From the IMG/VR virus record IMGVR_UViG_3300025767_000015, positions 1 through 61,065 of that record: a stretch of 61,065 bases of DNA; one strand, 5' to 3'. The notes under the pieces are model-generated. The model had not been told where the DNA came from, did not search any database, and worked only from the letters and a program-made list of their open reading frames with translations. The translations under genes and the position numbers were made by a program. Origin of the DNA: a virus (lineage: Duplodnaviria > Caudoviricetes). Numbering within the stretch: position 1 is the stretch's first letter; the number at the start of each line of letters is the position of its first letter. Below are positions 3,097-25,965 of this stretch, in pieces.

Positions 3097-3500
3097 TGCA
3101 ACAAAGAAAAAAACCTTGTGCAGGCTGTGAGTCTGAACAATTCATTTGGAAAAGAGAAGGAAGAGACCTGTATTGCAGATCTTGTTGGAATAAAGTAAGA
3201 GCTAAAACAGATGATGCTCCTAAATTAAACAAGGTATCAGCTAGAAAGGCTTCAGAAGATAAGGTATATACTAAATTGCGTAGAGATTTCTTATTACAGA
3301 AACCTTTTTGTGAAGCTAGATTACCTGAATGTACTGTTAAAGGTACAGATATCCACCACACATATTTTGGCAATGACAGAAGTAAGTACTACTTGATAAC
3401 ATCTACATGGAAAACTGTGTGTAGATCTTGCCATAATCAAATTCATGATAAACTAACCCAAGAAGAATTACTAGAACTTGGATTAAAACGTAAAGATTAA
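3096..3500 (+). CDS. HNH endonuclease with N-terminal zinc ribbon
   Basis: CAGC..CRSC ribbon, then CEARLPEC..DIHH..VCRSCHNQIH. Confidence 0.75.
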   Translation: MQQRKKPCAGCESEQFIWKREGRDLYCRSCWNKVRAKTDDAPKLNKVSARKASEDKVYTKLRRDFLLQKPFCEARLPECTVKGTDIHHTYFGNDRSKYYLITSTWKTVCRSCHNQIHDKLTQEELLELGLKRKD

Positions 3501-21810: not shown

Positions 21811-22082
21811 ACTAATAAAGTTTACTATCTTAGAGGTCTCAAACTTTTAAGATATGATAATGCTACTAGGATTTATTGCAATATTGTTTATTGCAAAAAC
21901 ATTAAGATAAAATACAAGGGAAGTTGTACATAAAGAAAACTCTTATGCTTAAAGGGTTTGAAGGTAATCCAGTCTTTTTTATACTGTATCCCAAGATTGT
22001 GTAAAGCAGTTTAAAAAGATTAAAACGCGTACAACATAATAATCATAGCGGTTATGGATTACAAAAGCCGGGAAGAGAATGT

Positions 22083-22116
22083 AGAGAGAGCTTATTAAGC
22101 GTTATAAGCTCTCTCT
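22083..22116. terminator. long hairpin at the convergence of the two gene blocks
   Basis: Perfect 13-bp inverted repeat AGAGAGAGCTTAT-N8-ATAAGCTCTCTCT. Confidence 0.7.
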
Positions 22117-22122
22117 TTCCCG

Positions 22123-22278
22123 TTATTCTTCCTCAAAAACATTAATACGTAATGTTAGTATACCTAAGAATACTTGATAAGTAGTCCACGGTATTTCTTC
22201 ATTAGCCCTTAAAGCCTCAAAGCCAATAGCTAACCTATCATGAGGCCAGTGAAATATAAGTTCTAATGTCCAGTTCAT
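22123..22278 (-). CDS. 51-aa hypothetical protein (MNWTLELIFHWPHDRLAIGFE..), not in the ORF track
   Basis: Manual translation; TAATG-coupled to the phoH stop; ends just before the hairpin. Confidence 0.65.
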   Translation of the reverse strand: MNWTLELIFHWPHDRLAIGFEALRANEEIPWTTYQVFLGILTLRINVFEEE

Positions 22279-22964
22279 TATCTATAATCTTCGTACACTT
22301 TAAGTACAGGTTCAACAATTTCATGACGATGGTTTGTCTTAAGAGTAATAACTTTAAAGCCTTTAACCTGAGCTTCTAATGTATATAGAAAGCCAAAGCC
22401 AGAATCTTTTTTATTACGTAGATCTATCTGAGCTTTATCACCACATATAACCATAGTACTACCTTTACCTAGACGGCCAAGCATCATTTCCATTTGATTC
22501 ATAGTAACGTTTTGAGCTTCATCTAATATGATAAGAGCATCAGTAAACGTTCTACCCCTCATGAATGCAAACGGTACAATTTCTATAAGGCCTTCTTCAA
22601 CACACTTGTCAATCTTAACTTTATCATATAGTAAGTACAAGTTATGGTATATAGGAGCAAGCCACGGATCCATCTTTTCCTTGATATCTCCAGGAAGGAA
22701 ACCGATGTCTTCTTTGGCAACTGTTGGTCTGGTAATGATAATCTTTTCAATTTGCTTTGTAAATAAGAGATCCAACCCAGTTTGCACTGCCACCAGAGTT
22801 TTCCCACTTCCTGCCATACCCTGTAAGACAGTGATTGGGTTTTCAAGTATTTCTGCTTTTGCAAGTTTCTGCTCTTCATTGAGACTTATATTAAATTTAA
22901 TAGGCTTCTTAGGTCTTCTCTTTGCTTTAAATACCTCATCGTTGTGAGATCTAGCTGCTGCCAT
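22278..22964 (-). CDS. phoH: PhoH family ATPase
   Basis: GMAGSGKT, ITRP, GFLPG..EKM.P, FMRGRT, LDEAQN, RLG, GD..Q.D and RH motifs. Confidence 0.95.
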   Translation of the reverse strand: MAAARSHNDEVFKAKRRPKKPIKFNISLNEEQKLAKAEILENPITVLQGMAGSGKTLVAVQTGLDLLFTKQIEKIIITRPTVAKEDIGFLPGDIKEKMDPWLAPIYHNLYLLYDKVKIDKCVEEGLIEIVPFAFMRGRTFTDALIILDEAQNVTMNQMEMMLGRLGKGSTMVICGDKAQIDLRNKKDSGFGFLYTLEAQVKGFKVITLKTNHRHEIVEPVLKVYEDYR

Positions 22965-22966
22965 AA

Positions 22967-23533
22967 TTAATCTTTTTCTGTAGCATACTTGACACCCATA
23001 ATGGTACCAACTATACTGAATGAATTAGTTAACAATATACCAAATAAATTTGACCATGTACTTTCTATTATCTTAGAATCATACCCTTTAGCAAGTATAA
23101 ACAAATACAATACTGTAGTAAGTAATCCTACACCAACAATAATACCCAATGCTAATTTTACTATAATAGAGATCAACTCAAACTGAGTCTTTTTTTGCAT
23201 GACCTCTAAGTCATTCAATGCTTCATCCCGTAAGTTCTCAGCTTCTTTTTTAGAGTCTTCCAACTCTTTCATTTTATCTTCAAGATCTAAAAGCAAATTT
23301 TTATTTAAAATGTTTGCTGCTTCTAATTCTTTATTCTGAGTTTGAACTTGTTTAGTTATATCTAAACGCTTCCTCCTTTGAGATAAATCTTTCTTCTTAC
23401 ACTCTTCAATATAATCCTTAACTTCAGGATCAGAAGTCTTAGCCAACAACTTAACAAAGCTTCCTTCTATAAAAACTTTCTTAGCTTTAGCTTTCTTAAT
23501 GGCTTCTTTAATAGTGTCTTTAGAACTTATCAC
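22967..23533 (-). CDS. coiled-coil protein with two C-terminal TM helices
   Basis: About 115-aa charged coiled coil, then IIVKLALGIIVGVGLLTTVLYLFIL and LFGILLTNSFSIVGTIMGV. GTGA overlap with the receiver gene. Confidence 0.75.
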   Translation of the reverse strand: MISSKDTIKEAIKKAKAKKVFIEGSFVKLLAKTSDPEVKDYIEECKKKDLSQRRKRLDITKQVQTQNKELEAANILNKNLLLDLEDKMKELEDSKKEAENLRDEALNDLEVMQKKTQFELISIIVKLALGIIVGVGLLTTVLYLFILAKGYDSKIIESTWSNLFGILLTNSFSIVGTIMGVKYATEKD

Positions 23534-23964
23534 CTATATACTTTAAACGGATTAGTTTTATTGACATAACCTTGATAGTCTTTATTAAACTCTTCTAGTC
23601 TTGGTTCAATGTCATCAGATTTAATAATCCAAAACTGTGCACCTACGGCTTTAGCTTTTTCAATTTCCCCGCTATCACTGCTGCTAGAAATAATGCCAAT
23701 AACACAACCATTTCCATAATCTTCATTTATTTTACGGATCATTTCTATACCATCAAAGGATGATCCTATTATATTTAAATCAACAAAAACACATTCAGGT
23801 CTTTCTTCACCGTTATCCGGGAACCAAGACTTAAACATTCTGTCAGCTTCATCAGAGCTGTCTAGTGATTCTATAGACAAGGCTATGTCTAACATGCTAC
23901 AGGCATCTTCAAATACCAGATGAAATAGGTTTTCATCATCTATTAGCATTAGTGTATCAATCAT
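23530..23964 (-). CDS. single-domain response regulator (CheY-like receiver)
   Basis: LIDDE (D9/D10), VFVDLN (D62 phosphoacceptor), DGIE, IISSS (S93), GA..WIIK (K115); no output domain. Confidence 0.92.
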   Translation of the reverse strand: MIDTLMLIDDENLFHLVFEDACSMLDIALSIESLDSSDEADRMFKSWFPDNGEERPECVFVDLNIIGSSFDGIEMIRKINEDYGNGCVIGIISSSSDSGEIEKAKAVGAQFWIIKSDDIEPRLEEFNKDYQGYVNKTNPFKVYR

Positions 23965-24863
23965 ATCTCAATAATTATTTTAGTACCTCCCTCATCTCTT
24001 TTTTGAGCTCGTACATTAAATCCATGTTCTTTTAAAATTGCAATTGAGATATTAAGTCCCAATCCCGTACCACTTTCTTTTTGTCCTTCTTTTCTTACGT
24101 AAGGTTTACTGAGTTCTATAAACTCTTCTGAAGTCAAACCTCTACCATTATCTTCTATTAGGATACTTAAGCCTTCTGTAAAGCTATCTTTAATGCTAAT
24201 CTTTACATACTTCGTACCACTATCATTATACTTTAAACCATTCCGAATAAAGTTATCTATAGCTGTACATAGTAACGGCTCATTAATTTCAAAAGACACA
24301 TCTAAACTGTCATCAAGAACAACCTGATTCTTATATGCAGTCAGCTTAAGATAGTCTGACAAAATTTCTTTTATATTTTTTAATTCTTTATTTAACTGTG
24401 CATTCTCCTTTACGAGATTTGTAAATTCAAATACACCTGCGTATACTTTTTGAGCATGGTGTAACCCATCTGTAATTAATCTAAGAGGTGCACCTATCTT
24501 TAACTCCTTAATATCCTCATCTGTAAGCCTTCTATTAAGAGATTTAATCCCTCTTGGTAGATAAGTATTAATTCCACTATGCATGTCATGACGTATGATC
24601 TTTGCAGCATGTTCTAAATAGATGTTCTTCTTATTAAGATCCTTTCTAATCTCAGCTTTATTACTTAAGAACTCTTTTACTACCGTAAAAAACGGAGGCA
24701 TAAAGGCAATAACACTAAGCCACTCAAAGTAATGTGTAAACGTGCTGTGATGTATAACTTTAAAGACAACTAAACTTTTGAATACAAAAAATGTAACCAT
24801 AATTATAGTTGAACATAGTAGGCAAATTCTACTACGTAAAGATATACCAGCTAAAGCTCCCAC
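23961..24863 (-). CDS. membrane sensor histidine kinase
   Basis: Two N-terminal TMs; H-box IIRHDM (H92), N-box NFIRNGLKY, G1 EDNGRG, F-box KPY, G2 GTGLGL, G3 GGTK. Confidence 0.92.
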   Translation of the reverse strand: MGALAGISLRSRICLLCSTIIMVTFFVFKSLVVFKVIHHSTFTHYFEWLSVIAFMPPFFTVVKEFLSNKAEIRKDLNKKNIYLEHAAKIIRHDMHSGINTYLPRGIKSLNRRLTDEDIKELKIGAPLRLITDGLHHAQKVYAGVFEFTNLVKENAQLNKELKNIKEILSDYLKLTAYKNQVVLDDSLDVSFEINEPLLCTAIDNFIRNGLKYNDSGTKYVKISIKDSFTEGLSILIEDNGRGLTSEEFIELSKPYVRKEGQKESGTGLGLNISIAILKEHGFNVRAQKRDEGGTKIIIEI

Positions 24864-25051
24864 TATAGCTTAGATTTCTTTAACCCTAGCTTTTCAAAAA
24901 GCCATTTGCTTGGACAAAACTTGGTCCATACGCCAACCTGAAGCATTGTAGAAACAAAAGCTACTAACCACCAAGACTCAATGAAGATTGCTGTAGTTAA
25001 AACTACAGACATCAATAAGTAAACGGCTCTAACAGAAGTCCAGTTTTTCAT
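24863..25051 (-). CDS. small 2-TM membrane protein (DUF2892/YgaP-like)
   Basis: Two hydrophobic helices followed by TKFCP..LFEKLG. Confidence 0.7.
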   Translation of the reverse strand: MKNWTSVRAVYLLMSVVLTTAIFIESWWLVAFVSTMLQVGVWTKFCPSKWLFEKLGLKKSKL

Positions 25052-25173
25052 AAGTTTATTATTTGTGCTAATGCAATTTGAAATCTATACCACAATCGTA
25101 ATCTAAAAGAAAGATTTTTAAACTCTTTAGTTTTAAATAGATCTTCTAATTCTTTTACATCTTCTATTTTCAT
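25048..25173 (-). CDS. 41-aa hypothetical protein (MKIEDVKELEDLFKTKEFKNLSFRLRLWYRFQIALAQIINL), not in the ORF track
   Basis: Manual translation; starts 10 nt after the upstream stop and is ATGA-coupled to the next gene. Confidence 0.6.
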   Translation of the reverse strand: MKIEDVKELEDLFKTKEFKNLSFRLRLWYRFQIALAQIINL

Positions 25174-25183
25174 ACCTCTAGCT

Positions 25184-25654
25184 TTATACAGTATCGTAAT
25201 CTATATACTGAATAGTTACTTCTTCACCTTCTTCAAGTGCTTTAGCAATTGCAGGGTAAATTCTTTTATACGCCGTAGTACTTGCACCAATGAAACCATC
25301 ACTAGAGCCAAAATTCGTTTGTTGACTGCTACCAACAATGAGACACCCAGCAGTGTGTTCGTCAGTATTACCAGTATGAATAAGGATATACTCAAAGTTA
25401 GGCACATCACGTACCCATAACATTCCCTTGTGCATTTCCCCATATTTCTTTTCATACCTTCCATGAAAACCTCCTACCTTTCTAAGAGTGATTTTATATG
25501 TGCCAGCAGGAATTCGTGTTTCAGACATAACCTTTGTTTCTCTATACTCATCTTCAAGAGTGTAGCATAAAAACTTTCTTCCTTCTGTAACATCAAATAA
25601 AATACCGTTTGTGCTGTCGTCTTGACTGCTAATTCTTAATACTTCTAACTTCAT
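25184..25654 (-). CDS. DUF5675 family protein (L,D-transpeptidase-like fold), putative endolysin
   Basis: CYTLE, IPAGTY, VPNFEYILIHTGNT..TAGCLIVG with His/Cys pair; follows a holin-like gene. Confidence 0.75.
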   Translation of the reverse strand: MKLEVLRISSQDDSTNGILFDVTEGRKFLCYTLEDEYRETKVMSETRIPAGTYKITLRKVGGFHGRYEKKYGEMHKGMLWVRDVPNFEYILIHTGNTDEHTAGCLIVGSSQQTNFGSSDGFIGASTTAYKRIYPAIAKALEEGEEVTIQYIDYDTV

Positions 25655-25899
25655 TTTTTTGCAAACTTTTCAAGACCTGCAATACCAAATGAACCAAGTG
25701 TAATGATTACAAAAGAATTATAGATCCCTTCATTAATAACTAAATCTTTACCAAAGTAACCTGTAACCAAGTCAACTGTAGCAAAGACTACCATAACTGC
25801 AAAAGACATAAATCCAATGATGGTTTTTTCATTGTAATCATTTTCGTCTTTAAAGATGTCAGCAAACGCCATACACTTTAATTTTAATTTTTTAAACAT
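25651..25899 (-). CDS. holin-like 2-TM membrane protein
   Basis: IIGFMSFAVMVVFATV and FVIITLGSFGIAGLEKF helices with a basic C-terminus; ATGA overlap with the endolysin candidate; alternative start at Met11. Confidence 0.6.
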   Translation of the reverse strand: MFKKLKLKCMAFADIFKDENDYNEKTIIGFMSFAVMVVFATVDLVTGYFGKDLVINEGIYNSFVIITLGSFGIAGLEKFAKK

Positions 25900-25926
25900 G
25901 ATGTAATTTGTTGGTTCTTACATATA

Positions 25927-25938: not shown

Positions 25939-25965
25939 AAAGAGGGGCTTATAAAAACCCCTCTT
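25935..25965 (-). terminator. intrinsic terminator after the giant virion genes
   Basis: On the - strand, AAGAGGGG..CCCCTCTT followed by a T-run. Confidence 0.75.

Follow-up and report, generated by a model that had tools for sequence, protein, structure and literature searches.

The timing of lysis sets phage burst size and fitness. Apart from lysogeny switches and lysis inhibition of the T4 type, little has been learned, to our knowledge, about the ways in which lytic phages tune it to their circumstances. In Firmicutes, the two-component system LytSR is tied to the holin- and antiholin-like proteins CidAB and LrgAB, with LytR being a LytTR transcription factor, and stand-alone receivers that act by protein contact are known from the pairs CheY-FliM and DivK-DivL/PleC. 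In phage T4, the antiholins RI and RIII act on holin T during lysis inhibition, as described in the available portions of two reports (PMC11413866, PMC8385771). The available portions of two others describe phage-borne kinase genes, namely in the agr locus of Clostridium difficile phage phiCDHM1 (PMC3901668) and next to the curli genes of pelagiphages (PMC9599517). Here, we analyzed a phage fragment of 61,065 bases from the IMG/VR virus record IMGVR_UViG_3300025767_000015 (estimated completeness 51%; hereafter the window), in which the genes of a minimal histidine kinase, a stand-alone receiver, and a membrane protein of 188 amino acids (aa) follow one another. We propose, with a probability of roughly 0.55, that a two-component pathway encoded by the phage has the membrane-embedded 188-aa protein as its output, which most likely controls lysis timing. 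The three genes and the regions of the 188-aa protein are as follows.

23961..24863, minus strand: histidine kinase, minimal form, 300 aa (HATPase_c, E 1.8e-15)
23530..23964, minus strand: stand-alone receiver, 144 aa, ATG start (Pfam Response_reg; conserved tail of about 25 residues)
22967..23533, minus strand: 188-aa protein, GTG start (open reading frame (ORF) list; relatives by tblastn and profile)
23309..23533, minus strand: N-domain of the 188-aa protein, residues 1-75 (alignments A1 and A4; motif R..RL.ITKQ.Q.QN..L)
23222..23308, minus strand: coiled-coil stalk of the 188-aa protein, residues 76-104 (alignment; part of the AlphaFold2 helix 36-149)
22970..23221, minus strand: juxtamembrane helix and two-helix membrane hairpin of the 188-aa protein, residues 105-188 (alignments, hydropathy)

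The locus resembles LytSR-Cid/Lrg in that a two-component system would be tied to a small membrane protein controlling cell lysis, but the system here is encoded by a virus and its receiver lacks a DNA-binding domain, so that its output would be by protein contact. In Pfam scans, none of the three proteins contains a LytS-type kinase domain or matches the LytTR or LrgA/CidA families. With CheY and DivK, the locus shares a single-domain receiver, an intact phospho-pocket, and a putative non-transcriptional output, and the DivK precedent fits the fusions between the N-domain and kinase cores described below, whereas here the receiver is proposed to act on a new domain, about 75 residues long, of a membrane hairpin protein in a viral system. 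As far as the available portions of the T4 reports go, the likeness to T4 lysis inhibition is one of purpose, in which a phage accessory protein turns a signal into delayed holin triggering, and not of sequence or topology. RI senses its signal in the periplasm and is not known to take input from a kinase or a receiver, whereas the regulatory domain here is cytoplasmic and modular (N-domain, PAS, or GAF). The kinase genes of phiCDHM1 and the pelagiphages are likewise phage-borne, and the receiver/N-domain/hairpin arrangement was not found in the portions of those reports at hand. In the literature on phage kinases, available in part and with supplementary files outside the search, other kinases are described, and the kinase-receiver-hairpin module was not found.

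Relatives of the 188-aa protein were confirmed by tblastn in 155 IMG/VR stretches, its profile matches 243 of 1.84 billion representative proteins at E ≤ 1e-3, and the alignments contain near-invariant blocks. Therefore, the ORF is real. It has no family in Pfam or PHROGs, and its matches in the ESM Atlas are its own viral clusters only; according to these sequence searches, it is a member of a virus-only family. The AlphaFold2 model (97-sequence alignment, predicted local distance difference test (pLDDT) 78) consists of two short N-terminal helices, an unbroken helix (residues 36-149) that runs into the first membrane helix, and a return helix (154-183). The Kyte-Doolittle hydrophobic segments are at 116-151 and 163-181, and together with the model they bear out the coiled coil followed by two transmembrane segments that the first-pass annotation had read from the letters. 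Because the protein has no signal peptide and its 118-residue N-terminal part is charged, both of its ends probably face the cytoplasm. A Foldseek search of the model against the PDB gave no match at E ≤ 1e-3, and the six matches at E ≤ 10 are helical hairpins such as ATP-synthase c subunits, which are uninformative.

Three regions can be distinguished in the family alignment (97, later 141 sequences), namely the N-domain, the coiled coil, and the juxtamembrane helix with the hairpin. Invariant residues of the N-domain are Glu23, Gly24, Tyr41, Asp49, Arg56, Lys61, Gln64, Asn67, and Leu70. The stalk is poorly conserved and variable in length, with insertions of up to about 46 residues in relatives. 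The second helix of the hairpin (STWSN.FGILLTN.FSI.GTIMG.KYA) is nearly invariant, and its consensus is common to proteins carrying the N-domain and to those carrying PAS or GAF domains in its place (see below). A face of polar and small residues on the hairpin (Asn162, Gly165, Thr169, Ser173, Gly176, and Gly180) is invariant or nearly so. An Hpt-like phosphorelay role of the 188-aa protein was considered and rejected because no invariant histidine is present in the alignments. One relative of 348 residues (P0071) has the N-domain, the coiled coil, and the first membrane helix followed by a multi-pass permease-like region, and may be either a real fusion or an assembly chimera.

The receiver matches Pfam Response_reg alone (residues 6-116, E 4.9e-07), and this match is marginal, with 30.3 bits against a cut-off of 30.2. 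The Pfam scan revealed no second or output domain in its 144 residues, in line with the first-pass annotation, which had described a receiver lacking an output domain. Asp9, Asp10, Asp62, Ser93-95, and Lys115 are invariant in 141 sequences, and we assign them, by their spacing, to the CheY active-site positions. The mean column identity of these sequences is 81%, and the C-terminal tail of about 25 residues is conserved as well. The solved chains nearest to the receiver profile (A3) are 3ilh (E 1.3e-6) and 4zyl. The profile match, the active-site residues, the lack of an output domain, and the adjoining kinase gene together identify the protein as a stand-alone CheY-like receiver. Across marine and freshwater relatives, the receiver is 61-95% identical, which is unusually conserved for a phage accessory gene. 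A tblastn search of the cultured phages in INPHARED gave no match to the receiver or the 188-aa protein.

The kinase of the window begins with a hydrophobic N-terminus, followed by an H-box (RHDMHSGINTY) and an HATPase_c domain, and has no cytoplasmic sensor domain. The HATPase_c domain with its N, G1, and G2 boxes identifies it as a histidine kinase. Pfam HisKA was not matched; the invariant RHDMHSGINTY block is located at the position expected for the DHp domain, and the H-box and the N and G boxes are near-invariant in the alignment. The kinases of relatives contain one PAS domain (about 410-430 aa) or a GAF plus a PAS domain (707 aa). The kinase and receiver genes share the four bases ATGA (23961-23964). 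At 23530-23533, the plus strand reads tcac, which is GTGA in the coding direction, and the GTG start of the 188-aa gene thus overlaps the TGA stop of the receiver gene, confirming the overlap reported in the first reading.

The first-pass annotation had named a lack of co-occurrence between the receiver and the 188-aa gene as the result that would speak against their coupling. The outcome was the reverse. Among the 155 IMG/VR loci gathered by seeding with the 188-aa protein and the receiver, the order of kinase, receiver, and 188-aa gene is kept in 153. One of the two remaining loci is without upstream sequence, and in the other (L155) the homologue begins 12 nt short of the contig end, behind an inserted gene for a 161-aa membrane protein. 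When all fetched loci with more than 600 nt of upstream room are taken together (274 loci, which are not all independent, since some contigs were fetched twice), the N-domain gene has a receiver gene no more than 1.3 kb upstream in 272 and a kinase core is present in 267. The gap between the receiver and N-domain genes is at most 38 nt in 131 of the 149 distinct protein pairs from the first two locus sets, and the flanking genes vary among loci. A metagenome scan seeded with N-domain fusions added 80 loci with N-domains 32-51% identical to that of the window, and in each of the 78 for which upstream sequence exists, the receiver gene comes directly before the N-domain gene. The adjacency of the two genes survives insertions of about 2 kb between kinase and receiver (for example, in L261 and L264). 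These sequence data indicate that the module is widespread in uncultured marine and freshwater phages.

Genes were also found inserted between the receiver and N-domain genes, coding for a polytopic membrane protein of 161-167 residues in 15 loci (5997-6482 in L155; 1027-1530 in L056), a 56-aa membrane ORF in 8 loci, and a 109-aa ORF in 4 loci. In a mirror-tree comparison, the distances of the receiver and the N-domain are correlated (r 0.57; partial 0.48; reached in 0 of 300 permutations), and the correlation of the N-domain with its own hairpin is lower (r 0.38). Because shared descent inflates such tests, this correlation gives weak support. A complex prediction for the receiver (A3) and the first 100 residues of the 188-aa protein (A4) scored 0.33, 0.07, and 0.13 against a mark of 0.32; run without controls, it counts neither way.

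Longer matches to the 188-aa profile are natural domain swaps of three kinds: PAS-PAS-coiled coil-hairpin (such as P0047 and P0051), GAF-coiled coil-hairpin (P0033), and N-domain-coiled coil-kinase core (P0110, P0126, P0138, P0139, and P0116). For the PAS form, 253 relatives were found on viral contigs and 80 loci were kept. Neither a kinase (0/73) nor a receiver (0/73) is present in the PAS-type loci, and the three full-length GAF-type loci are likewise devoid of kinase, receiver, and p62, the small membrane protein encoded upstream of the kinase in the window. The N-domain is absent exactly where the receiver is absent (0 of 76 PAS or GAF loci). A search with the receiver profile over ten whole contigs, six of them PAS- or GAF-type, gave no match; the ten include the complete genomes G001, G003, G013, and G014 and the two loci that have an N-domain without a receiver. 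As a positive control, the same profile found exactly one copy in each of five two-component-type contigs. Pfam Response_reg is present in none of five PAS-type contigs, and HATPase_c is present in neither of the two complete ones and in one of the five overall, where it belongs to a 631-aa ORF about 42 kb from the hairpin gene. The GAF domain of P0033 and those of the long-form kinases from two-component loci are 53-68% identical, and the PAS of P0047 reaches up to 54% identity with the PAS domains of such kinases. Owing to this sensor homology, the fused forms look like the pathway minus its kinase core, receiver, and N-domain.

In the third kind of fusion, the N-domain and coiled coil are joined directly to a DHp/HATPase core, which supports the first-pass observation that the coiled coil resembles the signaling helices preceding DHp domains. 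In locus L260 (1,058 nt), the gene of such a fusion (612-1034) is directly behind a kinase and a receiver gene. This truncated locus is the only one recovered with the N-domain on a kinase core, the rest of the metagenome scan being N-domain-hairpin genes. No relative of the P0110 fusion was found in viral contigs, and in genome contigs it matched 23 loci through the kinase core only, none of the matches reaching the first 29 residues. The gene order in L260 is suggestive of a receiver-controlled second kinase.

In the sequences compared, the N-domain goes with the receiver whatever its C-terminal partner, and the hairpin goes with any cytoplasmic sensor. This behavior in the swaps suggests that the hairpin is likely the output of the pathway and the N-domain likely a receiver-docking adaptor, and the pattern is the one expected if a signal runs from sensor through kinase, receiver, N-domain, and helix to the hairpin. 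The 188-aa protein has the properties of a modular signaling-helix protein, because input and output modules recombine independently in nature and a continuous helix connects them (residues 36-149 in the AlphaFold2 model; the coiled coil runs straight into the H-box in the fusions). The arrangement follows the bacterial logic of one- and two-component systems, in which one output module is either fused to PAS or GAF domains or served by a kinase and a receiver, with homologous sensors. It differs in that a membrane hairpin takes the place of a DNA-binding or enzymatic output domain, and in that the receiver is unfused and apparently acts via a separate docking domain.

In the mechanism that we propose, the kinase, in its minimal membrane form and perhaps with p62, would phosphorylate the receiver on Asp62. 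The phosphorylated receiver would dock on the cytoplasmic N-domain of a parallel coiled-coil dimer, and the long helix, unbroken into the first membrane helix, would pass the change to the hairpin bundle. The four-helix membrane bundle formed by two hairpins might then restrain or release a holin-like protein, or open itself. In the window, the hairpin could serve as a regulated antiholin or holin partner of p82, a holin-like protein, and of a YkuD-like wall peptidase containing DUF5675, both encoded upstream. We regard functional coupling of the receiver and the N-domain as probable, and an effector role of the hairpin as somewhat less so though still favored; an effect on lysis is a tentative proposal. 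More speculative still is a general "sense-then-lyse" circuit, in which a two-component system or its PAS/GAF one-component equivalent would read the energy, envelope, or superinfection state of the host, gate the hairpin effector post-translationally, and thereby set holin triggering.

The surroundings of the three genes bear on the last of these steps. They belong to a densely packed minus-strand block with the following further features, listed in the direction of transcription.

25940..25965, minus strand: terminator-like hairpin with an 11-bp stem followed by a T run, after the gene of an 1818-aa virion-type protein; upstream end of the unit
25651..25899, minus strand: p82, 82-aa holin-like membrane protein (ORF list; 4-nt overlap with the next gene)
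25184..25654, minus strand: DUF5675 protein, 156 aa (Pfam DUF5675, E 4.7e-27)
25048..25173, minus strand: p41, 41-aa ORF with no role assigned, upstream of p62 and kept in many marine relatives
24863..25051, minus strand: p62, 62-aa small membrane protein with a conserved WTKFCPSKW..EKLG motif
22278..22964, minus strand: PhoH (ORF list and family scans)
22123..22278, minus strand: 51-aa ORF following PhoH
22083..22116, minus strand: terminator-like hairpin with a stem of 13 bp, behind the 51-aa ORF; downstream limit of the unit

The p82, DUF5675, p62, kinase, receiver, and 188-aa genes are all bracketed by the two terminator-like hairpins. Because the number of terminator-like sites in the region (3) is not in excess of that in shuffled sequences (1.8 ± 1.3), only their intergenic placement is notable. 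PhoH, which the first-pass annotation had put among the proteins to be modeled with the receiver, was rejected as part of the module, as its gene comes directly downstream in 10/151 marine loci and 0/231 others (10/382). In a blastn comparison of 22000-25900 with the cultured phages in INPHARED, only phoH was matched, with 70% identity to Flavobacterium phages. Genes elsewhere in the window code for a phage DNA polymerase, a helicase, and several giant proteins of virion type. A run of giant minus-strand ORFs (1818, 2992, 1292, 1029, 644, 451, 500, and 1593 aa) occupies 25990-57104; two of them have weak matches to PHROG virion structural proteins, and a third to a minor head/DNA pilot protein.

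The hydropathy of p82 exceeds the threshold at residues 24-50, and a second transmembrane segment (about 58-76) and a charged C-terminal end were read by eye. It has no match in Pfam or PHROGs, and these features suggest that it may act as a holin. In 45 of the 80 PAS-type loci, a p82 relative is found no more than 400 nt from the hairpin gene. The DUF5675 protein has a weak match to Tlde1, below the cut-off (E 0.0044). Its AlphaFold2 model has a pLDDT of 80.8 and a predicted template modeling score of 0.80, and the 19 best VIA rows for it (Z 5.2-7.2, which is middling) are all YkuD-type L,D-transpeptidases or carboxypeptidases; a Foldseek search of the model gave nothing at E ≤ 1e-3. His93, His100, Gly103, and Cys104 are invariant in 31 sequences. 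From the predicted model, the protein is a candidate wall-cleaving enzyme or endolysin with a YkuD-like L,D-peptidase fold, which, if true, would assign a function to the so far uncharacterized domain DUF5675 and add a new type of endolysin. The protein collection contains 7,383 relatives of it.

Pfam families found near hairpin genes, which are often part of lysis cassettes, include Phage_holin_4_1, PG_binding_1 with Glyco_hydro_19 or Amidase_2, Peptidase_M15_3, and Phage_lysozyme. Loci with a recognized lysis gene within 5 kb were counted among distinct proteins and among those with 4 kb of sequence on both sides.

PAS-type loci: 51/57 distinct proteins; 18/21 with 4 kb on both sides
Marine two-component-type loci: 56/96 distinct proteins; 21/41 with 4 kb on both sides
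Metagenome loci, mostly short: 14/65; 7/10 with 4 kb on both sides

Endolysin-type genes alone are within 5 kb in 45/57 PAS-type, 45/96 marine, and 10/65 metagenome loci, and Phage_holin_4_1 was found in none of five large two-component-type contigs. In the complete genome G001, the genes are ordered as a lipoprotein-like ORF, an 85-aa ORF, the PAS-hairpin gene, a p82-like gene, Phage_lysozyme (E 3e-43), and Peptidase_M15_3. At locus L198 of the complete PAS-type genome (5271-5998), the lipoprotein-like ORF has 158 aa and the 85-aa ORF combines a membrane helix with a coiled coil; both are directly upstream of the hairpin gene. By their features, these two ORFs may form a spanin pair; they have no family matches apart from PHROGs of unknown function.

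The p62 protein has weak Pfam matches under the cut-off to DUF4395 (E 0.0043) and YgaP-like_TM (E 0.0059), and FCPSKW..EKLG is the invariant part of its motif. Its gene is found in the 1.5 kb before the kinase core in 83/117 marine loci and 7/84 freshwater-type loci, and in none of the 80 PAS-type loci. It goes with short and one-PAS marine kinases and is rare beside the GAF/PAS-rich freshwater kinases. Since the window kinase is minimal, with neither PAS nor GAF, and p62 accompanies such kinases, p62 may be a co-sensor that supplies the kinase input.

Several points weigh against a membrane-embedded, lysis-controlling output of the pathway. The evidence is genomic context throughout, and the independent evolutionary contrasts are few, about four architectures, so that much of the synteny could be common descent. 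The two exceptions among the 274 loci, L378 (N-domain-hairpin gene at 3195) and L383 (5574-6230), have 3-5 kb of upstream sequence and neither a receiver nor a kinase nearby, and the L383 contig, at 177 kb and 74% completeness, gave no match to the receiver profile anywhere. Conservation is far stronger in the receiver than in its proposed partner, with a mean column identity of 81% versus 51% for the whole 188-aa protein and a mean pairwise distance of 0.24 versus 0.50 for the N-domain; its main partner could therefore be something else. The lysis link is partial, because only 21 of the 41 marine loci with full flanks have a recognized lysis gene nearby. The 188-aa protein has two membrane helices and the tail KYATEKD, but also a 118-residue cytoplasmic domain, and it matches no holin family in Pfam or PHROGs at E ≤ 0.1 and no antiholin or other lysis family; a PAS-fused relative matches no PHROG family at E ≤ 0.01. 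The first-pass description of the GTIMGVKYA end as holin-like accordingly found no backing in families, and of its proposal that the protein is the receiver's target, possibly a regulated holin or antiholin, the coupling to the receiver and the effector role are well supported by genomic context, while the holin homology fell away. The assumption that p82 is always adjacent was dropped after a single-protein search found relatives in three of five large two-component-type contigs, two of them distant from the receiver (159 kb in G006 and 13 kb in G007).

These points leave room for other explanations, each of which we consider unlikely. The 188-aa protein might act upstream of the kinase as an accessory sensor or scaffold, with the hairpin contacting the membrane helices of the kinase and the N-domain sensing a cytoplasmic cue or holding the receiver near the kinase. 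Such a role would suit a kinase that, like that of the window, has no sensor domain beyond its hydrophobic N-terminus, and in P0110-type proteins the N-domain is indeed the N-terminal input region of kinase cores. However, the hairpin is almost unchanged in the PAS- and GAF-fused proteins of kinase-less genomes, and the kinase therefore cannot be its obligatory partner; moreover, long-form kinases have GAF and PAS sensors of their own and yet keep the receiver and the N-domain protein. The genuine target of the receiver might instead be a protein of the host or some other protein of the phage. The 188-aa protein would then be a lysis or membrane protein in its own right, for example a holin partner or superinfection-exclusion factor, and have only a late operon in common with the two-component genes. 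The stronger conservation of the receiver is what a conserved host partner would lead one to expect, and the two loci having the N-domain protein without a receiver point the same way. This account has small odds in our judgment, because the adjacency of receiver and N-domain outlasts the rearrangement of every other neighbor, the N-domain is gone exactly where the receiver is gone, and it stands behind the receiver even when its C-terminal partner is a kinase core (L260).

It is similarly improbable, in our estimate, that the pathway operates as proposed while its hairpin serves a purpose other than lysis, for example as an ion-conducting or membrane-remodeling switch that adjusts the energy metabolism of the host or prevents secondary infection. 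The polar and small-residue face of the hairpin would be in keeping with such a switch, and 20 of the 41 marine loci with full flanks have no recognized lysis gene nearby, their module being flanked by ribonucleotide-reductase-like and other genes, which were named by eye from the sequences. A lysis function is favored over it by the position of the hairpin gene between holin-like and endolysin genes in PAS-type phages (18/21 with full flanks), including the complete genome G001, and by the unit that the 188-aa gene shares with p82 and the YkuD-like protein in the window.

If the "sense-then-lyse" circuit is real, its hairpin would be the first case of a two-component system whose output is a membrane switch, addressed via a dedicated receiver-docking domain. 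Lysis inhibition would then have a second form, unrelated in mechanism to the first and widespread among phages of marine and fresh waters. A complete pathway of this kind, encoded by the phage and ending in a membrane effector, would mean that uncultured aquatic phages actively sense the state of their hosts, and two-component systems would gain a new kind of output. The compact and modular architecture of sensor, helix, and membrane switch would be testable and re-wirable, and the natural PAS, GAF, and two-component variants are ready-made experimental controls.

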